64,000 bases of DNA, taken from the NCBI GenBank assembly GCA_947589475.1, contig CANQBO010000007.1:33493-97492 (forward strand), read 5' to 3'. Positions 23,994 to 34,791 of the stretch are shown one piece after another; the stretch's first letter is position 1; the number at the start of each line of letters is the position of its first letter. Source of the stretch: an uncultured Clostridia bacterium (GTDB lineage: Bacteria > Bacillota > Clostridia > Christensenellales > CAG-917). The notes below the pieces were generated by a model. That model made no database searches, was not told the origin of the DNA, and worked only from the letters and a program-made list of their open reading frames with translations. The translations under genes and the position numbers were made by a program.

Positions 23994-24968
23994 TTAGTCG
24001 CACTTTAAAATGTTGATGAGTCCCAATACGAACGAGTCCGAGCCAAGGTCAATGATGTTGAGGGAATATATGAAAACGGGTATGATGATAAGCACGCACA
24101 AAATGGGGTTAAGATACCAAAGCCCGACGCACAGCACGATGTCTATCGCAAAAATTATGAGCCCTACAAGGATGAGCGATACAACGTTGCGCGACGTGAT
24201 GACGTCCTTCGGCGTAAGCGGAACGTTCTTATCCCTGAAAATGATGTAAGCATTCATTAGCGAAATGATTGCCCACAGCGCGACCGCCGCAACGAGCACA
24301 AGTATGGCGAACCATTGTATAAACGCAAACAGTATGCCCGCTACAAAAACCACGATGGACTGCACAAACGGAACAAGAGTATGCGCAAGCAAAAAGTTTT
24401 TTATTCCACGTTTCGCCGTACGCCGACGCAAGACATATCGCGTAGCTGAGTTTGAAATCCACACACCCAGCGCGACGAGCGACACCGCGATACCCAGGTC
24501 TACGGACAGCTTGTTTGAAAAATTGGTCAGTATCGCGTTTATCTGCGCATCAAACCCTTCCGTAGACATACTGAGCGTATCGAAAAAGCCCTTGACTGTC
24601 TCGCTTATCCATTTTGTATCCAAAATTCGCGCGATGGTCTGTAAAAAGTTGCCATCCCAATTTATCTTGCCAAATGCGTAAGCGAGGAACTCCTCCACCG
24701 ACGCAGACGACTGCTCTATAGACGCGCCCACGGTCTCGATTATCCCCGACAGCGTATCCGACAAGTTCTGCAAAGTGGAGCCTGCAAACAACAAGATCGC
24801 AAACAGCATAAAAAGATACACCGTGCCCATCGTCACAAAAACGTATATCAAATTCGTGCCGAAATTCTTCAGCGTATTCTTGATCATTCCGAAATCGGGC
24901 GCTAAGTTTTTGTCGCTTCCGCTCTCTCCCCTCTTTGAAACGCTCTCTCGCTTTGACCCCTTTTGCAT
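23994..24968 (-). CDS. Hypothetical polytopic membrane protein (324 aa)
   Basis: Long ORF with at least 6 hydrophobic segments and a basic cytoplasmic N-terminus. I recognise no family. Confidence 0.6.
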   Translation of the reverse strand: MQKGSKRESVSKRGESGSDKNLAPDFGMIKNTLKNFGTNLIYVFVTMGTVYLFMLFAILLFAGSTLQNLSDTLSGIIETVGASIEQSSASVEEFLAYAFGKINWDGNFLQTIARILDTKWISETVKGFFDTLSMSTEGFDAQINAILTNFSNKLSVDLGIAVSLVALGVWISNSATRYVLRRRTAKRGIKNFLLAHTLVPFVQSIVVFVAGILFAFIQWFAILVLVAAVALWAIISLMNAYIIFRDKNVPLTPKDVITSRNVVSLILVGLIIFAIDIVLCVGLWYLNPILCVLIIIPVFIYSLNIIDLGSDSFVLGLINILKCD

Positions 24969-25193
24969 ACTGCCTCTAATTGATGTATTGAGATATTATT
25001 TTGATACCCTATATAAAATCGTTCCATACGACCCATTATTGTGTATCCAACGCTTTATATAAAGCACTTACGCTATTATATCACCGCCCGCCGCTTTTAG
25101 CAACATTAAGTTTCGCATATGACAGGTTCAATATCCTAATGGGCGATGCGGCTGACAAAAATTTCGCCGTCTAAACAAAAATGTTAAAATCGC

Positions 25194-25222
25194 TTGCAAC
25201 TTAAACAGCATTATGTTATATT
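25194..25222 (+). promoter_or_regulatory. Putative promoter of tRNA-Leu (TTGCAA, 17 nt spacer, TATATT)
   Basis: The -10 ends 8 nt before the mature tRNA 5' end. Confidence 0.5.
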
Positions 25223-25230
25223 TGTAGTGT

Positions 25231-25318
25231 GCCGGTGTGGTGAAATTGGCAGACGCGCTGGACTCAAAATCCTGTGGACTAATCATCCGTGACGGTTCGA
25301 GTCCGTCCACCGGCACCA
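25231..25318 (+). tRNA. tRNA-Leu (anticodon CAA), class II with long variable arm, CCA encoded
   Basis: Acceptor GCCGGTG/CACCGGC, anticodon loop CTCAAAA, T-arm GACGG-TTCGAGT-CCGTC, discriminator A plus CCA. There is one U-U mismatch in the anticodon stem (CTGGA/TCCTG). Confidence 0.9.
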
Positions 25319-25319
25319 A

Positions 25320-25352
25320 AAGAAGGGACAGTTTAAAGCTGTCCCTTCTTTT
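25320..25352 (+). terminator. Intrinsic terminator after tRNA-Leu
   Basis: 12-bp perfect stem AAGAAGGGACAG/CTGTCCCTTCTT with a 7-nt loop and a short T tail. Confidence 0.65.
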
Positions 25353-25595
25353 GCTGTCGGCGTCCGTCCTCTCACCGTCACTGCGAGTTGCTTTCGCAAC
25401 TCGCACGTGATCTGCACGCGTCGCTTCCGAGAGCAAGCTCTCCCGCTCCGCTGTTGAGCGAGTCCGTCCATATAGCGTGATGCGGTTATAAATGTTGATT
25501 TTGTCCGCTTTTGGCTTATAATATATTCGCCTATGCGTGCAAATATCCATTTCTAAATGTAAGTAATGTAGATAATATAGGAGAACGATAAATAA

Positions 25596-25995
25596 ATGGT
25601 TGCCGGCATTATAGTGTTGATAGTGGGTTTGATAGGTATCCCTATAATTATTTTGATAAAAAAAGGACACCTGGATCTTATATTCGGATATAATACCATG
25701 ACAAAAGAAAAAAGAGAAAATTGATAAGATAAAATTGAGGCAATACGTTTTAAGAATTTTAATCTCGGAAACATTGTTGCTTATTGAATCCGATATTGTT
25801 TTTATAATAAATCTAAAAAAATATATCGTAATTTGAGCAACCGTTGCTATTTTAGTGATACCTATAATAGGAGTTATAATGTATGCGAGTTCAGCAATGT
25901 TGAATATTAAGGCTATTGATCACATACACATAATTCTAACGATCGTAATTATATTAGTTAGTCCTATAACTTTGTTTACATTAACTTTTATTTAA
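25596..25995 (+). pseudogene. Decayed gene for a small multi-TM membrane protein (AGYNTM-KE motif family; I recall this as DUF3784, not verified)
   Basis: AGGAGA RBS, then ATG at 25596 gives MVAGIIVLIVGLIGIPIIILIKKGHLDLIFGYNTMTKEKREN followed by TGA TAA. Membrane-like sequence continues after the double stop (DKIEAIRFKNFNLGN..). After a +1 frame shift and another stop it reads ..ATVAILVIPIIGVIMY..ILTIVIILVSPITLFTLTFI*. Confidence 0.4.
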
Positions 25996-26186
25996 TGAGT
26001 TATTTTCGGATAACCAAAATGCTTACTCGTATACGGAAGATATTACAATTGAGATCCAACACAAAACAAAATATTCAGAATACTAAATTATACATATCTA
26101 CAAATAATATCATAACCCATATCAAAAATATATAAGGAAACAAGTCCGAACCAAATAAAAAACAGTCTCAATTTGTTTGCACATTG

Positions 26187-26231
26187 AAAACACTCTCCCG
26201 TACCTATGGTGGTGCGGGAGAGTGTTTTTTT
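26187..26231. terminator. Bidirectional intrinsic terminator (downstream of pnp on the minus strand)
   Basis: AAAACACTCTCCCG / CGGGAGAGTGTTTT 14-bp stem with a 14-nt loop, followed by a T7 run on the plus strand. Confidence 0.7.
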
Positions 26232-26349
26232 GTGATTTTAAGTTGTACCGCGGAAAGTTTATGCCGCGAGCGGATCATATTTTGCGAATATGTTTATCGC
26301 AAGCGTTTATATCCGCGAGCGCAAGGCGCGACGCGAAATATCGTATAAG

Positions 26350-28464
26350 TTACGCCTTCTTGACGATCTCCTTGAGTTTGAGGTCTACGCGGTGTTTCTC
26401 GTCGATCTTGATGACTTTGACAAGCACGATGTCGCCCACATTGACGACGTCCGTCACCTTGTCAACGCGCTTGTCGGAGAGCTTGGAGATGTGGATCATT
26501 CCGTCCTTGCCGGGAGCAAAGTTGACGTTTGCGCCAAACTGCCCCTTGTCGTTCTCCATTATTTTGGTGACGACGCCCTCATAGATGTCGCCGACCTCGA
26601 CGTCGCGCACGATGGTTTCGATGATGTTCTTCGCCTTGTTGATGGCGGTCATATCGTTGGACGCGACAAAGACTACGCCGTCGTCGTTGATGTCGATCTT
26701 GACGCCCGTGTCGTCGACGATCTTGTTTATGGTCTTGCCGCCCTTGCCGATGATGTCGCCGATCTTGTCGGGATCCACCTCGAAGGACACGATCTTAGGC
26801 GCCCACTTGCTGAGTTCGGGACGCGGCTCGGCTATGACAGCCTTCATCTTGCCGAGTATCTCAAGCCTGCCGAGTCTTGCTTGCTCGAGCGCTCTCTTCA
26901 AAATGCTCTCGTCTATGCCCTTGATCTTGATGTCCATCTGAATGGCGGTTATGCCTTCCGTCGTGCCCGCGACTTTGAAGTCCATATCGCCGAGGAAGTC
27001 CTCGAGGCCCTGAATATCCGTGAGCACTGCGACTTTGCCCTGCTCCTCATTCTTGATGAGACCCATAGCGATGCCCGCGACGGGAGCCTTGATGGGAACG
27101 CCCGCGTCCATCAGCGCGAGTGTACTGCCGCATACGGACGCCTGAGAAGTGGAGCCGTTGGAACTCAAGATGTCGGACACTGTACGTATTGCATACGGGA
27201 ATTCCTCCTCGCTGGGCAAAACAGGCTCCAGAGCGCGCTCGGCGAGGGCGCCGTGACCTATCTCGCGTCTGCCGGGACTCTTGAGCGCCTTAGCCTCGCC
27301 TGTGGAGTAGCCGGGCATGTTGTATTGATGCATGTATCTCTTATAATAGTCGTCGTCGAGACCTTCCAGCCTTTGCGCCTCGGATATAGTGCCGAGGGTG
27401 CAGGTGGTGAGGGCTTGAGTCTGACCTCTTGTGAACACGGCGCTACCGTGCACGCGCGGGAGCATGCCGACCTCTATCCAAATTGGACGTATCTCGGTGA
27501 GCGCTCTGCCGTCGGGACGCACGCCTTCGTTGAGTATCTTTGCGCGGACCTTCTCTTTTTTGAGGTAGTACAGGCTGTCGAGGATGAATTTTATCTTCTT
27601 TGGCTCGTCATTAAAGTCGTCCGCAAAGTGTGCGAGCACGTCCTCGTTGAGGGCGTCCTCTCTCGCCTCGCGCTCATAACGCTCGAACGCCTCGAGCACA
27701 TAGTCCATCTTCTTGTCCGCATATGCGCGGACTGCGGCGTCGATAGCCTCGGGGATATGCTCAAGCTCTATATCCTGCTTCGGCTTGCCTACAGCCTTCT
27801 GTATCTCTTCGATGAAGGCGACGATCTTTTTGATTTCCTCATGTCCGAACATTATTGCGCCGAGCATCTCCTCTTCGGTGATGACTTCCGCGCCCGCTTC
27901 GACCATCATTATGGCGTCCTTAGTGCCGCTCAAATTGAGTGTAAGGCGGGACTTAGCGCGCTGTTCGCTGTCGGGATTGATGACATATTCGCCGTCTACA
28001 AGGCCTACGACCACGGAGCCTGTGGGACCTGCCCACGGGATATCCGATATACTGAGCGCGACGGACGAGCCTATCATGCCGAAAACTTCGGGCGGGATGT
28101 TGGTGTCCACTGACAGCACTGTAGCGATGACCGTAACGTCGTTGTAAAGTCCCTTCGGGAAGAGCGGACGAATGGGGCGGTCGATGAGGCGCGACGTCAA
28201 AATAGCTTTGTCGCTTGCCCTGCCCTCGCGCTTTTTGAAGCCGCCGGGGATCTTGCCGATCGCGTACATTTTCTCTTCGTAATCCACGCTGAGGGGGAAG
28301 AAATCCATGCCCTCGCGAGGCGCCTTGCTCATGGTCGCGTTGACCATGACCACCGTGTCGCCGCAGCGGACTACGCACGAACCGTTTGCTTGCGAGCAAT
28401 ATGCGCCCGTTTCAACGATAAGCTCTCTGCCGCCGACTGTTGTCTTGAAAATTTGTCTTTCCAT
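26350..28464 (-). CDS. pnp: Polyribonucleotide nucleotidyltransferase (PNPase)
   Basis: 704 aa with two RNase PH domains plus KH (GKGGKTINKI) and S1 C-terminal domains. Confidence 0.95.
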   Translation of the reverse strand: MERQIFKTTVGGRELIVETGAYCSQANGSCVVRCGDTVVMVNATMSKAPREGMDFFPLSVDYEEKMYAIGKIPGGFKKREGRASDKAILTSRLIDRPIRPLFPKGLYNDVTVIATVLSVDTNIPPEVFGMIGSSVALSISDIPWAGPTGSVVVGLVDGEYVINPDSEQRAKSRLTLNLSGTKDAIMMVEAGAEVITEEEMLGAIMFGHEEIKKIVAFIEEIQKAVGKPKQDIELEHIPEAIDAAVRAYADKKMDYVLEAFERYEREAREDALNEDVLAHFADDFNDEPKKIKFILDSLYYLKKEKVRAKILNEGVRPDGRALTEIRPIWIEVGMLPRVHGSAVFTRGQTQALTTCTLGTISEAQRLEGLDDDYYKRYMHQYNMPGYSTGEAKALKSPGRREIGHGALAERALEPVLPSEEEFPYAIRTVSDILSSNGSTSQASVCGSTLALMDAGVPIKAPVAGIAMGLIKNEEQGKVAVLTDIQGLEDFLGDMDFKVAGTTEGITAIQMDIKIKGIDESILKRALEQARLGRLEILGKMKAVIAEPRPELSKWAPKIVSFEVDPDKIGDIIGKGGKTINKIVDDTGVKIDINDDGVVFVASNDMTAINKAKNIIETIVRDVEVGDIYEGVVTKIMENDKGQFGANVNFAPGKDGMIHISKLSDKRVDKVTDVVNVGDIVLVKVIKIDEKHRVDLKLKEIVKKA

Positions 28465-28539
28465 ATATATCTCCTATTCTCGGGGATTCCGTCATCCCCT
28501 ATTTTTGTTTGGGTAGAGCGTATGTATCGATACGCTCAT

Positions 28540-28569
28540 AAAAAATCGGGTGCGACAAACAGCGCACCC
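28540..28569 (-). terminator. rpsO terminator / start of the structured pnp leader
   Basis: On the minus strand, GGGTGCG-CTGTTTGT-CGCACCC followed by T6. Two further hairpins (GAGCGTAT/ATACGCTC and GGGGAT/ATCCCC) lie between it and the pnp ATG. Confidence 0.65.
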
Positions 28570-28579
28570 AATTCTTTTT

Positions 28580-28843
28580 TCACTTTCTGAGTCCGAGCGA
28601 GCTGACGATTGCACGATACCTCTCGATGTCAACGTCCTTGAGATAGTTGAGCAAGCTCTTCCTGTGACCGACCATCATGAGCAGTCCTCTGCGGCTGTGA
28701 TGATCCTTCTTGTGCACCTTGAGGTGCTCGGTGAGTTCCTTGATGCGCTCGGTGAGAAGCGCGATCTGCACTTCGGGAGAGCCTGTGTCGCCCTCACTGC
28801 GCGCATACTTTGCAATGATCTGTTGCTTGAGTTCCTTATCCAT
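28580..28843 (-). CDS. rpsO: 30S ribosomal protein S15
   Basis: Start [34 protein letters not shown] at 28843, with AAGGAGGT upstream. Confidence 0.95.
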
Positions 28844-29020
28844 TGATTTAACCTCCTTCGCTGGATAAATAATTCGCTTGCAACCAAGTAAGGACTCGGA
28901 GTATTTGACCAAACCTCGTCGCAAGTACGCGGATAATAATATCACAAACAAACTAAATTGTAAACAAATTTAGCGGACTTTATAAATTTTTTTTGAAGAA
29001 GGATGTTTATTAAAAGCCAA

Positions 29021-30319
29021 TTAGTCCTTTAAGCATCCTATCGGTATGATATATACGCCCTCTTTGCTCTTATACGCCATTTCGCCGCCGGTAAGCACAA
29101 TAAGTGCGGACGGTTTTGAGAGTGGACATTGCTCATTTTCCGAATTGTATTTTTCAATCAGAGCATTGAGGCTCAGCAAATGGTCGATACCGTTTGATAT
29201 CTCGCGGCTACCGAGTTTGCACTCTATAAGAGCATACCTGCCGTCTTTGAGATGTAAAACGAAGTCCGCTTCGAGATCGTATCTGTCGTGATAATAGCTG
29301 AGTTGCCCTCTCATCGATTGCGAATATACCCTAAGATCCCTCGCGCAAAGCGTTTCAAAGAAAAAGCCGAAGGTCTTGAGATCCGTATAAAAATATTCGG
29401 GATCGACGCCAAGTGCGGCAATGCCTATCGACGGATCGACGAATTCTCGCTTGTATCTGCTTCTTATTGCCGAAGCGGAGCGTATGGACGGACACCATGC
29501 GGGCACATCCTCTATCACAAATAATTTTTCGAGCGCGGAGTGATAATCGTCGAAAGTGGACGCAGATATACTGTTGAATACCGCGGCAATGTCACTACGC
29601 AACAACTGTTCCGTCGCCAAAGTCGAAACGTTTCTTGCATACGATCTTAAAATGTGTCTCGCTTTTTCGGGGTCTCTGTTTTTTCCGTCTACGGTCGATA
29701 TTTCCATTGCGCATATGCCATCCAGATAATCGCTTGCCACTATCAGCTTAGCCGCGTCAGACCTCTTAGACAGGCTTGAAGGCCATCCGCCGCGACACGC
29801 CGCAAAAATGAGCTCTTCGACCGAAAGATCGGAGCGTATGCCGTCTATGTCATAATTCGGATCGTCGAAGAGCCTTAAAAGCGATATCTTGCCGTTTGAC
29901 TCGCCTGACTCGAACAGTGTCATTGGGTACATCTTCATTCGAGATATTCTGCCTATCCCCGTATGCATAATGCTGTTTTCATCAACGGAATTAGAACCCG
30001 TCAAAATGAAAAGTCCCTCTCTGTTTTCTTCGTCGACAGCACTGCGTACAGCGTCCCACAGTTCCGGAGCGACCTGCCATTCGTCTATGAGTCGAGGCTT
30101 ATCGCCCAAAAGCAAAAGCGACGGCTTTGTGTTTGCCGTTGTCAAATATGACTCGCGTCTGTCCGGATCCTGCATTTTGAGTACGCTTTTCGCTTGCATT
30201 TCGGCAGTCGTGGTCTTGCCGCACCACTTTGGCCCTACGATGAGCGTCGCCCCAAACGCTTCAAGCCTCAAAGCAAGCTCTTTATCAGCCAATCTGGGCA
30301 AATATTGTTTATATGTCAT
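29021..30319 (-). CDS. AAA+ ATPase of the AAA_14/DUF4143 (COG1373-like) type with a PD-(D/E)xK-like C-terminal motif
   Basis: Start MTYKQYLPRL at 30319. Walker A GPKWCGKTT, Walker B RLIDEWQ, and the family-typical FILTGSNS...GRISRMKMYPMTLFE. The C-terminus LEADFVLHLKDGRYALIECKLG has a D..E.K nuclease-like pattern. A 60-nt sample at 29100-29159 is 38% GC by hand count. Confidence 0.8.
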   Translation of the reverse strand: MTYKQYLPRLADKELALRLEAFGATLIVGPKWCGKTTTAEMQAKSVLKMQDPDRRESYLTTANTKPSLLLLGDKPRLIDEWQVAPELWDAVRSAVDEENREGLFILTGSNSVDENSIMHTGIGRISRMKMYPMTLFESGESNGKISLLRLFDDPNYDIDGIRSDLSVEELIFAACRGGWPSSLSKRSDAAKLIVASDYLDGICAMEISTVDGKNRDPEKARHILRSYARNVSTLATEQLLRSDIAAVFNSISASTFDDYHSALEKLFVIEDVPAWCPSIRSASAIRSRYKREFVDPSIGIAALGVDPEYFYTDLKTFGFFFETLCARDLRVYSQSMRGQLSYYHDRYDLEADFVLHLKDGRYALIECKLGSREISNGIDHLLSLNALIEKYNSENEQCPLSKPSALIVLTGGEMAYKSKEGVYIIPIGCLKD

Positions 30320-30341
30320 ATGCACCTCACATCTTTGCAAA

Positions 30342-30371
30342 ATTATAGCATTTAAAGTTTGTCGAAGTCAA
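30342..30371 (-). promoter_or_regulatory. Putative sigma-A promoter of the ATPase gene (TTGACT, 18 nt spacer, TATAAT)
   Basis: Read on the minus strand; the -10 is at 30347-30342 and the -35 at 30371-30366. It lies immediately promoter-proximal to the 23-bp repeat array. Confidence 0.5.
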
Positions 30372-30390
30372 TACTTTATGACAGAAAAAT

Positions 30391-30528
30391 GTATTTTTGT
30401 GGCATTTCATTACGTACTTTTGTGGCATTTCATCATGTATTTTTGTGTTAATTTATAACGTACTTTTGTGGTGTTTCGTAATGAACTTTTGCGGTATTTC
30501 GCAACGCACTTTTGTGGTAAGTGCGCAT
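30391..30528. repeat. Six head-to-tail, exactly phased 23-bp direct repeats (consensus GTAYTTTTGTGGYATTTCRTNAY)
   Basis: Units start at 30391, 30414, 30437, 30460, 30483 and 30506. R1 is gtatttttgtggcatttcattac and R2 is gtacttttgtggcatttcatcat (20/23 identical). R3-R6 are progressively more diverged. The period is not a multiple of 3. Confidence 0.9.
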
Positions 30529-30530
30529 AC

Positions 30531-30569
30531 AAAGTCAAGGGCGGGAATTTGTCCCGCCCTTTTGACTTT
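30531..30569. terminator. Strong hairpin terminator downstream of the 743-aa gene
   Basis: GGGCGGGA-ATTTG-TCCCGCCC core, extended by AAAGTCAA/TTGACTTT, with T-rich flanks. Confidence 0.7.
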
Positions 30570-30585
30570 TCATTTGCGCAACGGA

Positions 30586-32817
30586 CTATGCGCTCCGCTT
30601 CCTTGCTATGCCTTCATCGTAGTAGGCAAGATCTATGCGATAGCCGCGATATTCATGCATATATTCTTTGTATGCCGCAAGCTGCTTCTTATATAGTTGC
30701 TCTTTCTCGCGTGTATTGGAAAGATATTCTTTATATTGCACCGTCTTTTTGAGCTTCCTTGCGCCCAAAACCTGCTCCGTATATTTATTTGATGTAATCA
30801 GCATTCTAATTGCCAATATCCATAAAACAAAGAAATAAACTATTCCTGCGCAGGGCAACATAAAGTATATAATCTCTAACGAACACGAATATAACCGCTC
30901 TTCTGCGCTCGAATACACGCGGGAGACGTTGACCAATTTTATGATTGCGTCTCTTGTGGAAAGTGCGGGATCCTCAAATGAAATATGCCAAATTGCATTT
31001 CTGATGTCATTCATACACCAAATATATTGAGTATGGTATCCTAAAGTTTTGTCGGGAAATTCATAAAATTTAGTTATACCCGCCGGTATAGCTTGCAATT
31101 TTTTTTCAAGCTCGGCATATTGCTCCTTCGTTATAACCTGATAATCATACTCACTCACTCTTATTTCAATTTTACTATCGTCATCTTGCACCTCTGATGT
31201 TACAAGTTTTCCGCACACAGCATCAAAAATAATAGCAAAATTATTGGGAACGGAGTAGGAGTTGTGATAATCTGTAGTAGTTAAATCCAAATCAAAATAT
31301 TCGTTCAATGCGTCGATCGCCTCTATAATCGGCTTGACATTCTTTTCATATCCTTTGACTACATTCTCAAGACCATCCGCGGATGCAATATACAATAGCG
31401 CGTCCACATTATCATAAGTACCAGCATCGGTAGCCTTGAAATCCCAAAAATTTTGTCTATGCAATATAAAGTCAGCAATTTGTTCGTCGGACATATCGGT
31501 TATTTTTTTCAATTCTTTGTAACCTAAATTATAAACCGTCACATCAGAAGGCGCTTCGTTCATCTCATTCTCGTCACTGTTCTCTAGGTTCCACATACTC
31601 ATACTCAAGTGAATACTCTCATATTGGACATCATTCATGTCCTCATACCAGTATTTAAAATCATTATTATCGATATCGGTTTTGAAAAAACTATACGGAC
31701 TTATAATATGAAATATCGGCCAAATCATCAGTAGCGCAACAGTTGCGCATACAAACATAAACGGCGCAATAATGTTGGCCGCTTTTATGGAGCCTCTTTT
31801 ACAAACCTTCCAAAAGTCTTTTGGCTTTGTGGTGGCATAATAAATTATTGCAATTATTCCACCGATGACGCCCAAAAACAAGATCATCACGAGATATGCG
31901 ACGGCTTCTCTTCGTTTTATGTGTTTTACTATTTTCTTTTTATCTTCCTCGCTGTCTGCAACGGCGATATTTTTATATGTTGGCGCCTTTTTTTGAGGTT
32001 TTTGAGGTTTCCCGACAGGGAACGGCTCTAAGGGTTGAGTAAGTTTGGCGCGAGCGGCGTCTTTTTGAGCTTCGTACTCGTCCTTTGCCCCGCGCCATAC
32101 AAGCGATATGAGCTTTCTGCCAAACAGCGCCGAGATCATCAACAGTCCGAAGAACAGCGAGAAGAAGATGATACATATGGGCGCCGCGCCCGGTTCGGAC
32201 AGCCCGAGGTCGTCACCAACGTTCGCGCAAAGTATGCATCCGAGCAGGAAAATGACAAACAAAAGCAACAGGCTTGCGAGGTCGAATATACTCTTTAGTT
32301 TGAAAGTGCAGTCACCGACTTTAAACTTTGTTGCCGCAAGCGGGACATACATCGCGAACGCAAGCTCGACCGCCGCGACTACTACCGCAAGAGCGGCGAA
32401 CGCTACAAGCGAAGCGCATATGCCCTGCATTGACGCGCCCGAACCGCCCTCTTCATCAAAGTCTAAATCGTCTGCCGCAGACAAGGCAAATTCATCTCCC
32501 CAATCATCTGCGGACTCTTCTTCACTCCCCGAAAGATAGGAATACACGGAGTCGGATACTCCGCCGAATTCCTCCGCAAGTTCGCTCTTTGTGACGGGAC
32601 CCGCAAAGCAGATCAACATCAAAGCCGCAAACACGGCGAAGAGTATGGAGAAAATTTTCGGCATATGCGCGTACAGTTTGCCTATAAGCGCGGGCACGGT
32701 TGCCCTGCCAGCGGACGGAGCGGATGCATCGTTTTGTTTTGGCAAGCCGTCAGCAGGCTCGCCGCAATTCGGACAGAATTTGCCTTCGAATTCCTGTCCG
32801 CACTTTGAACACTTCAT
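30586..32817 (-). CDS. Hypothetical 743-aa zinc-ribbon, multi-pass membrane protein with a compositionally foreign C-terminal two-thirds
   Basis: N-terminal MKCSKCGQEFEGKFCPNCGEP (CxxC..CxxC zinc ribbon), an acidic stretch, at least 6 TM segments, a ~300-aa hydrophilic region, a final TM, and a Lys/Tyr/Glu-rich tail. About 1.25 kb of the ORF runs uninterrupted through ~27-35% GC DNA, which argues for real coding. Confidence 0.75.
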   Translation of the reverse strand: MKCSKCGQEFEGKFCPNCGEPADGLPKQNDASAPSAGRATVPALIGKLYAHMPKIFSILFAVFAALMLICFAGPVTKSELAEEFGGVSDSVYSYLSGSEEESADDWGDEFALSAADDLDFDEEGGSGASMQGICASLVAFAALAVVVAAVELAFAMYVPLAATKFKVGDCTFKLKSIFDLASLLLLFVIFLLGCILCANVGDDLGLSEPGAAPICIIFFSLFFGLLMISALFGRKLISLVWRGAKDEYEAQKDAARAKLTQPLEPFPVGKPQKPQKKAPTYKNIAVADSEEDKKKIVKHIKRREAVAYLVMILFLGVIGGIIAIIYYATTKPKDFWKVCKRGSIKAANIIAPFMFVCATVALLMIWPIFHIISPYSFFKTDIDNNDFKYWYEDMNDVQYESIHLSMSMWNLENSDENEMNEAPSDVTVYNLGYKELKKITDMSDEQIADFILHRQNFWDFKATDAGTYDNVDALLYIASADGLENVVKGYEKNVKPIIEAIDALNEYFDLDLTTTDYHNSYSVPNNFAIIFDAVCGKLVTSEVQDDDSKIEIRVSEYDYQVITKEQYAELEKKLQAIPAGITKFYEFPDKTLGYHTQYIWCMNDIRNAIWHISFEDPALSTRDAIIKLVNVSRVYSSAEERLYSCSLEIIYFMLPCAGIVYFFVLWILAIRMLITSNKYTEQVLGARKLKKTVQYKEYLSNTREKEQLYKKQLAAYKEYMHEYRGYRIDLAYYDEGIARKRSA

Positions 32818-32841
32818 TGTTGTAACTCCTTTTTAAATTTT

Positions 32842-32890
32842 AAGTACAATTTGCTTGTACTTTTTTCGTAATTGTACAAGATATTTGTAC
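32842..32890. promoter_or_regulatory. GTAC-core palindromic operator cluster in the divergent promoter region
   Basis: AAGTACAA-N5-TTGTACTT (32842-32862), the palindrome TTGTACAA (32872-32879), and TTGTAC (32885-32890). The four GTAC cores are spaced 13/17/13 nt apart. Confidence 0.45.
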
Positions 32891-32915
32891 TCTTGTCAAT
32901 GATTTGGGTAAAGTT

Positions 32916-33125
32916 ATGGAAAAAAATGCTATCGCAAAAAATATCAAACTTTTAAGACGCTCATTGGGACTTACACAAGGAGAATTAGCAGAAAAACTAT
33001 GCGGCAAAAAGAGCCTTGTAAGCAATTACGAGAACGGTTATTCCGTGCCCGATATTTTCACGCTCATTCAGCTTGCGGACATCTTCGACGTCACTCTGGA
33101 CGAGCTTGTCGGTCGCGACAAATGA
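32916..33125 (+). CDS. XRE-family helix-turn-helix transcriptional regulator (69 aa)
   Basis: IKLLRRSLGLTQGELAEKLCGKKSLVSNYENGYSVPDIFTLIQLADIFDVTLDELV is a canonical Cro/C1-type HTH. The ATG at 32916 is preferred over the TTG at 32904; no strong RBS is visible. Confidence 0.8.
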   Translation: MEKNAIAKNIKLLRRSLGLTQGELAEKLCGKKSLVSNYENGYSVPDIFTLIQLADIFDVTLDELVGRDK

Positions 33126-33351
33126 GCGCCTTATTTTTGATGATGTCGCCCTTGAAATTTTTAAGCAAAAATTCAAAACCCGCACTTTAAGACATTGTTT
33201 TTTGCAGATAAAATACGATTTATTGTCATCTTGAGCGAAGTCGAAAGATCCCCCTGTGCAACGCATGACGATCCCCTAGATACGCTTTGAGGAAAGCTTG
33301 TCCGATCGGAATTTATGAAATGAAACGCCTTGCCTTGGCTCTCGTCGTACT

Positions 33352-34791
33352 TTATTTCCAAAATTCGGCTTGACGGGAGAGCATCAGGTCGATGTTTTTG
33401 ATGTATTCGAGGGGTTCTTTATAGTTGGCGCAACGGGTGATGAGGTTTTTGTCCGCTTCCCACTTTTTGGAGATGGCGTTTGCGCCGCTCGCGATTATAG
33501 AGGTGTCCTCCTCCATAATGTCGATGTTGTAGATGCACTCGTGCCCGGGCAAGGAATAACCGACGTTTTCGAGGTTGCCGCTAGTATACTTTTGGCGATA
33601 CATATAGTACGGTCTGTAGCCCGCCGCGGACAGCTTGTCGTAGGCGTAGTCCACCATGCGCGAGGCGAGGTCGAAGCCCGCGTCCTCGAAGCCCTCGTTT
33701 TTGAGGCGACTGCCTTTTTTCATATACAGCGTATGCACGGTGATGTTTTCGGGAGCGAGCGCGCAGGAAATGTCCACACTGCGCTTGAAATCCTCGAAAG
33801 TTTCGTTTGGCAACATCGCGATGAGGTCCATATTTACGTCCATTTTGCCCTTGACGAGCGCGTAGGCGTTGTAGATGTCCCTCGATCTATGCTTTCTGCC
33901 GATGAGTTCGAGCGTAGCGTCGTTGAAAGTCTGCGGATTGACGGAAATTCTGTTTACGCCATGGGAGAGCAACATCTCGATCATTTCGCGGTCTATAGTA
34001 TCCGGTCTGCCCGCCTCCACGGTGAATTCGCGCGCGGATGGACAATATGAGAGTATCCTATCCAAATTTTCCACGCCTATTGACGTCGGCGTTCCCCCTC
34101 CTATGTAGACGGAGCGGATGTTGATATTTTTTGACTTGATAAGCTCCTTTGTCTGCTCCAACTCCCGCAAAAGGCAATCGACATAGGGCGAGACAAGCTT
34201 CTTCTGCTTGTCGAGGGGAAGGCTGACAAACGAGCAATACGCGCACCTTGTGGGACAAAACGGAATGAACACAAACGCGTCCATATCCCGCTCGGACTTG
34301 TTGCGGAGCGGCTTTTGCACCTCGACTATGCGCTCGATAAGCTCGATCTTGCGCGGGCTTACGTCGTAGTCCTCCTCAAACACTTCGCGCGCGCTCTTGC
34401 CGTACAGCGCGGGCGAGGACTCTATCTCAACATACAGCTTTGTGGGACGAATTCCCGTGAGACAACCATACGGCAGACGCACTCCCGTGAGAAAAACAAG
34501 AGTGTTGTAGATAGCCATTTTGAGGAAGCGTTTTTCCTCGCGTTTGCGCAAAAGTTCGCTGTCCGCTTTGACAGGATATATAAATTTTTTGGAAAAGTTG
34601 TCAAGTTTGTCCGATTTGAGCGTGACGATAAAGGCGCGCGGAGAGCGGGAGTAGCTCACCTCAAGCGAGAAGTCCCCCTCGACGCGGCTGTCGAAAAGAC
34701 GGATAAGCTCCATCAGATCGCCCGCATATTCCTCATCGCAACAAACAAAATGTATCATAAACTCAAAAAGTTCCCCTGCTTTACGCTTCAA
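33352..34791 (-). CDS. hemZ: Radical SAM coproporphyrinogen-III dehydrogenase-like protein (HemN/HemZ family)
   Basis: 479 aa with the CxxxCxxC cluster FCPTRCAYCSF and GGGTPT. The long N-terminal extension is typical of HemZ-like proteins. Confidence 0.75.
   Translation of the reverse strand: MKRKAGELFEFMIHFVCCDEEYAGDLMELIRLFDSRVEGDFSLEVSYSRSPRAFIVTLKSDKLDNFSKKFIYPVKADSELLRKREEKRFLKMAIYNTLVFLTGVRLPYGCLTGIRPTKLYVEIESSPALYGKSAREVFEEDYDVSPRKIELIERIVEVQKPLRNKSERDMDAFVFIPFCPTRCAYCSFVSLPLDKQKKLVSPYVDCLLRELEQTKELIKSKNINIRSVYIGGGTPTSIGVENLDRILSYCPSAREFTVEAGRPDTIDREMIEMLLSHGVNRISVNPQTFNDATLELIGRKHRSRDIYNAYALVKGKMDVNMDLIAMLPNETFEDFKRSVDISCALAPENITVHTLYMKKGSRLKNEGFEDAGFDLASRMVDYAYDKLSAAGYRPYYMYRQKYTSGNLENVGYSLPGHECIYNIDIMEEDTSIIASGANAISKKWEADKNLITRCANYKEPLEYIKNIDLMLSRQAEFWK

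Follow-up and report, generated by a model that had tools for sequence, protein, structure and literature searches.

A phased 23-bp repeat array at the promoters of PDC-S01-type ATPase-nucleases, and the probably composite hemZ-rpsO interval that carries one of them

Among candidate defence genes, PDC-S01 (COG1373, 'predicted AAA+ ATPase') is reported to rank fourth by frequency among 'defence' hits in prokaryotes and to be a candidate pending validation, its product being an ATPase fused to a PD-(D/E)xK domain (PMC12988326), and it is also reported as the most frequent single locus in rumen genomes (PMC13356809). DUF4143 has been counted among the PD-(D/E)XK families whose function is unknown (PMC3424549). 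One published test of PDC-S01 was found, a phage assay in which its representative in E. coli B was not among the four candidates protecting against T4, T5 or T7 (bioRxiv 10.1101/2024.09.26.614923). DUF4143 is rarely mentioned in the searchable literature, which describes neither a repeat array nor autoregulation for PDC-S01 or DUF4143, and the main text of the guilt-by-embedding preprint makes no mention of PDC-S01. Here we analyse a 64,000-nucleotide stretch of an uncultured Clostridia bacterium (the window; contig CANQBO010000007.1 of assembly GCA_947589475.1), in which an accessory interval of low guanine-plus-cytosine (GC) content between hemZ and rpsO holds an ATPase-nuclease of this family behind an array of 23-bp repeats, a 743-amino-acid (aa) zinc-ribbon membrane protein, and a small XRE-family helix-turn-helix (HTH) protein. 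An earlier note on this DNA, made by reading the sequence, had put the three genes forward as one candidate conflict module.

The window ATPase resembles PDC-S01 in its full-length profile match, in both Pfam domains and in its single-gene organisation, and what it adds is the repeat array, which is not mentioned for PDC-S01 in the searchable literature. Head-to-tail repeats of ~19-23 bp are familiar from plasmid Rep proteins acting on iterons (P1 RepA/incC, R6K pi) and from ParR/parC of plasmid R1. The likeness to these systems lies in repeats that adjoin and run into the promoter of the presumed binder's gene, in a putative winged-helix domain, in variable copy number and in lineage-specific cognate repeats. 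The window protein differs from them in being an AAA+ ATPase-nuclease with no Rep or ParR fold, and its cassette is chromosomal, has no origin features or partner genes, and would be bound by its product only on our proposal. Orc1/Cdc6 binds repeated boxes beside its own gene, and the archaeal Orc1/Cdc6 and AAA+ ATPases (PDB 2qby, 2fna, 2qen) share with the window protein the putative order of AAA+ followed by winged helix; the window protein has an extra C-terminal nuclease domain, and its repeats form a direct tandem series where those of Orc1/Cdc6 are inverted about an unwinding element. The best reading of the array is that of an iteron-like autoregulatory site that would be bound by the ATPase itself. 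For the interval as a whole we think it probable that two independently acquired cassettes have come together in a variable hotspot, with the ATPase autoregulated via its own array.

The array lies at 30389-30526 on the minus strand and comprises six units with the sense consensus TATGAAATrCCrCAAAAGTACGT, arranged head to tail and contiguously, so that spacing and unit length are both 23 bp. A degenerate seventh unit (30366-30388) overlaps the -35 element of the ATPase promoter, as it also does in the related locus L007, and this promoter (30342-30371, minus strand; TTGACT, 18 nt, TG-TATAAT) agrees with the consensus at 11/12 positions in a layout that recurs at homologue loci. Behind it, the ATPase gene occupies 29021-30319 on the minus strand and encodes 432 aa according to gene callers, the mechanical open reading frame (ORF) reaching a TTG at 30340. 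The pattern CNCAAA-N17-CNCAAA has five matches in the window, all of them inside the array, against 0.23 expected by chance. A CRISPR array was rejected because the units are contiguous and have no unique spacers, and a reading of the repeats as DnaA boxes was likewise set aside, since TGTGGCATT, judged by eye, does not fit TGTGnATAA. The window array also shows a 46-bp super-period, in which units ending AAAAGTACGT alternate with units ending AAAAATACAT or AAAGTTCAT; the same alternation is seen in L007 and suggests that the duplicated unit of these two arrays is a dimer of repeats.

The array is a property of the family and not of this genome alone. In 40 metagenomic loci encoding ATPase homologues (43-64% identity), periods of 12-39 were compared by self-match in the upstream regions, and 23 was the best period upstream of 29/34 homologues against 6/124 control regions (Fisher p = 8e-21); the controls were other upstream regions of the same loci, and several of the six positives among them are divergent neighbours sharing the upstream region of the ATPase. 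A position-weight search found at least two motif sites in 31/33 loci, with 57/69 adjacent spacings exactly 23 bp. The sense-strand unit consensus is A-A-y-r-A-A-A-T-r-C-C-n-C-A-A-A-t-n-a-C-t-w-A, with the common core CCnCAAA and nearly invariant positions C13, A14, A15 and A16, and the number of units varies from 2 to 9. At most loci a TTGAC -35 element begins 7-9 nt beyond the final full unit and takes the core position of a virtual next unit; downstream of it come a spacer of 17 bp, TATAAT, the ribosome-binding site GGAGG and ATG. The array is kept at 59% protein identity on the Bacteroides uniformis plasmid pBUN1 and at 48% and 36% in faecal contigs, and two units may be traceable at an Actinomyces homologue (25% identity). 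In the loci examined, more distant paralogues carry arrays of their own with unrelated units: one in L040 (1943-3214, minus strand) has 23-bp units built on GAATTCGGTTAA and placed downstream of its promoter, beside a neighbouring paralogue whose CCCCAAAT units are unrelated to them, and one in L054 (1162-2469, minus strand) has 24-bp units built on GCGGTATAATTGCC, each of which contains a -10-like TATAAT. A conserved, phased and lineage-specific array at the promoters of these ATPases appears to be undescribed so far, and it is the part of this interval most worth following.

Two further elements accompany some of these arrays. Three termite-gut contigs (L024, L040, L058) have in common an element of ~35 bp, AAAAATATGTCTACTTTACTTGACAAGTACAA, which lies ~60-120 bp upstream of the ATPase arrays, contains the palindrome TACTTGACAAGTA together with TTGACA, and may be a cassette border or another operator. 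The related loci L043 and L042 have, upstream of the 23-bp array and ~150-300 bp from the ATPase, a further tandem array whose period is 22 bp and whose unit AAATGGTGCGCACCAAAAGGTG has the palindromic core GGTGCGCACC.

The protein encoded downstream of the array is the AAA_14/DUF4143 ATPase with a D..E.K motif that the earlier note had described. In N-to-C order, Pfam assigns AAA_14 (3.2e-13, 50.3 bits against a cut-off of 27, residues 31-144) and DUF4143 (1.4e-28, 100.1 bits against a cut-off of 28.1, residues 219-376), and Walker A (GPKWCGKTTT, G29-T38), Walker B (DEW, D79 and E80) and the PD-(D/E)xK catalytic residues D352, E366 and K368 are invariant in 45 homologues. The PADLOC PDC-S01 profile PDLC04790 matches over the full length (2.3e-53; residues 6-437 against profile positions 6-417 of 422). 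The earlier note had placed COG1373-type ATPases among genes enriched in defence islands. The window ATPase adds a member to a candidate family that is already known but has not been characterised, and a defence role for it is unproven. The gene stands alone, with no obligatory partner across the 40 loci. PHROGs and NCBIfam returned nothing for the ATPase, and sequence searches of the PDB with it and with the membrane protein gave nothing significant. A phage origin was rejected: 5 of 50,697 phage records match, all of them unverified metagenomic 'Bacteriophage sp.' scaffolds.

The domain order of the protein was approached through an AlphaFold2 model with a predicted local distance difference test score (pLDDT) of 71.5, in which the N-terminal AAA part is poor. 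Foldseek found no match to this model at E <= 0.001 and served only as a weak guide to domain order. Its matches, all weak, were to the winged helices of PerR, Mur and MarR, to archaeal AAA+ ATPases and, further, to Orc1/Cdc6, McrB, Card1 and type II restriction enzymes, the archaeal entries 2qby, 2fna and 2qen being the best among them (E 0.007-0.1, TM-scores ~0.2). Together with the modelling of residues 216-295 as three helices and a beta-hairpin, these matches suggest the order AAA+ / winged helix / restriction-endonuclease-like.

Unit sequence co-varies with protein sequence across the family (Mantel r = 0.565, reached in 0/5000 permutations). A partial Mantel test for residues 216-295 given the rest of the protein gave r = 0.263, a value reached by 28/2000 permutations, and the reverse test for the rest of the protein gave -0.01, so that the co-variation seems to be carried most by the putative winged-helix segment, though modestly. 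This result bears on a first alternative, in which the ATPase does not bind the array at all and the repeats act as a generic upstream activating element, either through a host factor or through the intrinsic curvature of phased A-tracts. The units are indeed A-rich, with two A-tracts each, and the usual place of the array, upstream of the -35 element, is also that of UP-like or activator sites. The hosts, however, span Firmicutes, Bacteroidota and probably Actinomycetota, and no single host factor would therefore be common to all arrays. Curvature, for its part, does not need the conserved C13, C10 and C11, and a period of 23 bp is no multiple of the helical repeat. Since adjacent paralogues have unrelated units, and unit divergence tracks the putative winged-helix segment, we regard a generic element of this kind as quite unlikely.

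Under the autoregulatory reading, the ATPase would recognise its own array via the winged-helix part of DUF4143, several protomers would load on successive units up to the -35 element, and this loading would set the transcription of the ATPase gene itself. Negative feedback is the most likely sign of such a circuit, and it is plausible because an ATPase-nuclease is potentially toxic. The binder of the array, the sign of the regulation and a role in defence are all points that we infer. The array gives inexpensive experiments a tangible point of attack on a highly abundant protein family without a validated function or mechanism, and it suggests that ATPase constructs lacking the native upstream region may misbehave.

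A second alternative grants binding and assigns the array more than an operator's role, as a functional platform (iteron-, origin- or centromere-like) for AAA+ oligomerisation that would serve the mobility or replication of the cassette, or a resting state of the nuclease that is released on infection. The combination of AAA+ and winged helix resembles Orc1/Cdc6, with its repeats beside its own gene; the unit copy number is variable (2-9), the cassette moves between genomes without an integrase, and the failure of the PDC-S01 representative to appear among the candidates protecting E. coli B is also in its favour. Measured against iteron-type replicons, the locus does have tandem direct repeats of ~17-23 bp beside the gene of the presumed binding protein, but it has no Rep domain, its cumulative GC skew is monotonic across the region with no turn, and its neighbours are chromosomal housekeeping genes. 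Nor was an AT-rich unwinding element, a terminal repeat or a target duplication found here, where the cassette is chromosomal and single-copy. Transfer to the same site between relatives is more simply explained by homologous recombination via conserved flanks, namely rpsO on one side and, on the other, the XRE gene with the 5' end of the membrane-protein gene (85.7% nucleotide identity). A platform function is thus rather unlikely. A related and broader idea, also unlikely though slightly less so, is that PDC-S01 proteins in general are two-part modules, each consisting of a protein and a cognate 23-bp iteron-like array that would act as a lineage-specific oligomerisation platform, would set the protein's dose and might also keep the nuclease bound to DNA and at rest. 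Were this true, the non-coding array would be part of the system and would belong in functional tests.

In the proposal of an autoregulated ATPase as one of two cassettes, the parts that the data show are the gene content and boundaries of the interval, its modularity, its horizontal transfer, and the conservation and co-variation of the array. The first cassette would comprise 30537-33125 plus a spacer, with the XRE repressor, its operators and the zinc-ribbon membrane protein; the second, at ~28998-30534, would be a self-contained single-gene unit of 23-bp array, consensus promoter and ATPase-nuclease. The XRE/membrane pair occurs without an adjacent ATPase in four lineages (L005, L006, L008, L068), in which rpsO comes directly after the membrane gene or, in L006 and L068, after a small intervening ORF. 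The ATPase accompanies the pair only in the window's own species and in L007, the L009 contig ending before the context next to its pair can be read. Compared with L005, the extra DNA of the window is ~28998-30596, that is, the array, promoter and ATPase. Conversely, the ATPase is the sole cluster common to the 40 loci, and neither the membrane protein nor a common XRE gene lies next to an ATPase homologue in any of them (0/40). The neighbours there are housekeeping genes along with some defence or mobile genes (HEPN/NTase, methyltransferases, reverse transcriptase, SIR2 and extra PDC-S01 paralogues).

Transcription signals divide the interval in the same place. Its three best promoter matches, all on the minus strand, are those of the membrane gene (32899-32871), the ATPase (30371-30342) and rpsO (28964-28936), and a G+C-rich hairpin terminator with a 10-bp stem (30537-30561, minus strand) separates the membrane gene from the array and forms the left limit of the ATPase cassette. 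A hairpin of different sequence stands at the corresponding position in L005, where there is no ATPase. The two parts also have different histories. The ATPase ORFs of the window and L007 agree at 93.3% of their nucleotides, 76/87 differences falling at third codon positions, and their products are 97.7% identical, while the flanking genes are at 70% (hemZ) and 75.6% (relA) nucleotide identity and the HemZ proteins at 69%; the membrane proteins are 48% identical over less than half their length, the L007 form being short (471 aa).

These data decide against the proposal that XRE switch, membrane sensor and ATPase-nuclease effector form one abortive-infection-like conflict system. In favour of such a system one can cite that the window and L007 have all three genes side by side, that PADLOC lists the ATPase type as a candidate, and that GTAC occurs in both non-coding arrays of the window lineage. 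The earlier note had made its proposal depend on co-occurrence of the three genes elsewhere, and because the ATPase does not follow the pair (absent beside it in four lineages, and itself without the pair at 40/40 other loci), the three-gene system fails on that count, whereas the XRE/membrane pair itself stays together. Separate strong promoters with a terminator between them, and the unequal divergence of the two proteins between the window and L007, tell against it as well. The GTAC theme is literally present in both arrays (GTAC(TTTT)), but it is limited to the window/L007 lineage and lies outside the conserved core CCnCAAA, the corresponding positions in the family at large reading t-n-a-C-t-w-A. 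A single system is largely refuted by the co-occurrence data, and we consider it very improbable; adjacency and a common GC dip do not amount to one system.

The other cassette resembles phage cI/Cro-type switches and XRE-controlled accessory genes in its small HTH_3 protein, its divergent transcription and its two palindromes, one of which overlaps the target promoter; it differs in that no phage genes are nearby and that the controlled gene encodes a polytopic zinc-ribbon membrane protein that is rare and belongs to no assigned family. The XRE-family protein (69 aa; 32916-33125, plus strand; HTH_3 2.7e-15) is divergent from the membrane gene (30586-32817, minus strand), and the 86 bp between them hold both palindromes, O2 (32844-32860) and O1 (32874-32890), of the form GTACAA-N5-TTGTAC and 30 bp apart. 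The membrane-gene promoter (32871-32899, minus strand; TTGACA, 17 nt, TACAAT) agrees with the consensus at 11/12 positions; O1 falls between its -35 and -10 elements, and O2 lies just downstream. An XRE gene is found divergently upstream of the membrane gene wherever the contig reaches (L005, L006, L007, L009, L068), and it is called as 69 aa in L003, L006, L009 and L068. The operator pair with its 30-bp separation is conserved in L005, L006, L007 and L008, the last showing operators only as its contig ends. In L009, whose XRE protein is 43% identical, two AGAC-N7-GTCT palindromes overlap a TTGACA/TATAAT promoter instead. XRE gene, divergent membrane gene and paired palindromes are thus conserved together in L005, L006, L007, L008, L068 and L009, and the joint change of operators and XRE protein in L009 is the signature of a dedicated repressor, as the earlier note had supposed in calling the arrangement a switch. 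The XRE repressor would bind both palindromes and repress the multi-pass membrane protein.

The 743-aa protein begins with a CxxC...CxxC zinc ribbon and has 6-7 predicted transmembrane segments. In order, a probably cytoplasmic zinc ribbon is followed by four well-conserved segments whose first loop is acidic, then by a basic loop, two more segments, a ~260-aa acidic variable domain (residues 379-641), a last segment and a basic tail; the variable domain is missing in short forms and is encoded by the lowest-GC DNA. Neither Pfam nor PADLOC matched the protein, and in PHROGs and NCBIfam the only match was a PHROG on the zinc ribbon. A word-indexed search of 5.8 billion proteins returned seven homologues, to which a second such search with a profile of the seven sequences added none; in an exhaustive profile search 576 relatives passed E <= 1e-3, nearly all of them through the N-terminal zinc-ribbon/transmembrane part alone. 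The C-terminus of several of the long relatives consists of leucine-rich repeats of the BspA type and Listeria-Bacteroides repeats. Such repeats are typical surface domains, for which reason we take the N-terminus to be a membrane anchor and think that the variable domain is probably exposed on the cell surface. The pair is a narrow, uncharacterised family that nothing links to defence, and it defines a small group of zinc-ribbon membrane proteins under XRE control, with relatives that bear surface-repeat domains.

Several points weigh against the reading of two cassettes with an autoregulated ATPase. The placement of the array relative to the promoter is not uniform, since it lies downstream of the -10 element at one L040 paralogue and its units contain TATAAT in L054, and this variation makes the sign of regulation uncertain. 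No array accompanies the plasmid homologues of Thermus and Brucella (~25% identity). Simple co-inheritance would likewise make array and protein vary together, and the partial Mantel result is modest (p ~0.014). The winged-helix assignment is tentative because the AlphaFold2 model is moderate and all Foldseek E-values exceed 0.001. For the membrane protein, the topology is ambiguous under the positive-inside rule, and an AlphaFold2 model built from seven sequences (pLDDT 51.4) was unusable. Lastly, AAGTAC, which is half of an XRE operator site, occurs in some array units of the window and L007; cross-talk of the two cassettes through it is conceivable, though nothing supports it.

The junction itself was compared through a HemZ search (one genome per species), which yielded 12 loci from uncultured gut Clostridia, namely rabbit 'Lapin' and Christensenella-like metagenome-assembled genomes. 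The earlier note had regarded the interval as an acquired accessory island and had asked whether rpsO directly adjoins hemZ in close relatives. It does so in five (L011, L014, L018, L019, L021), in which the island is absent and the gap is only 100-255 bp, at HemZ identities of 88% (L011), 68% (L014) and 45-55% (L018, L019, L021). Other, unrelated short cargo is present at the same junction in L013, L016 and L017, and the hemZ-rpsO junction is a recurrent insertion or recombination hotspot in this group of uncultured gut Clostridia. This cargo consists of a 168-aa and a 201-aa membrane protein in L013 (2201-3331), a 298-aa lipoprotein-like protein with an acidic low-complexity linker in L017 (4524-5420), and ~0.7 kb without a convincing ORF in L016 (9423-10100). 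The closest relatives by HemZ (92%), L015 (9430-16406) and L010 (9430-10385), have neither rpsO/pnp nor the island after hemZ; in L015, ~4 kb after hemZ contains no long ORF, and an rRNA operon there was rejected, as no Rfam family matches that stretch.

By comparison with the empty site of L011 (blastn), the borders fall at 33352/33353 and 28997/28998, and the whole accessory interval, from the rpsO promoter region to the hemZ stop codon, is 28998-33352, which the earlier coordinates of 28952-33351 essentially anticipated. Its three genes, GTAC palindromes and six 23-bp repeats are all as that note had described them, and its low GC also holds: the mean is 0.436 for 28952-33351 against 0.522 for the window, with 0.478 in the ATPase gene, 0.436 in the membrane gene (0.38 in its C-terminal part), 0.423 in the XRE gene and 0.26-0.36 between genes. 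GC at third codon positions is 0.47 in the membrane gene, the minimum of 43 long ORFs, 0.53 in the ATPase gene and 0.45 in the XRE gene, against a window median of 0.68 and 0.66-0.74 in the flanking genes. The flanks measure 51-56% GC and not the 55-60% first estimated, and of three hand-counted 60-nt samples those of 38% and 58% were accurate (0.383 and 0.583), the third measuring 0.333 in place of 27%. Like a classical genomic island, the interval is atypical in composition and missing at this site in relatives; an integrase, a tRNA target and flanking direct repeats, the further marks of such islands, are lacking. Inspection of ORFs found no integrase in the island, as had been reported; there is no adjacent tRNA, the nearest lying beyond pnp at 25231-25318, and the only Rfam match in 24500-34000 is one tRNA (25231-25315), with no RNA element in the intergenic regions. 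Transposon-like mobility was rejected, as no flanking direct repeats, terminal inverted repeats or target duplications were found around the island or the cassette.

On one side, the interval is bounded by hemZ (33352-34791, minus strand; TIGR03994, 432 bits), after which come an MBL-fold gene and relA, and on the other by rpsO (28580-28846, minus strand; Ribosomal_S15 match) and pnp (26350-28464, minus strand). The rpsO upstream region (28847-28997) is strongly conserved across L005-L011, empty-site genomes included, and forms the fixed right-hand border of all insertions. It consists of a TTTACA-17-TATTAT promoter (28964-28936, minus strand) and a leader, CGTACTTGCGACGAGGTTTGG, that has no match among Rfam families and is consistent with an S15 autoregulatory leader. 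A second low-GC patch is present at 25231-26300 (GC 0.26-0.30 at 25500-26250), directly downstream of tRNA-Leu(CAA) (25231-25318) and before pnp; it contains only short hydrophobic ORFs of 42 and 46 aa and could be another small insertion at a tRNA.

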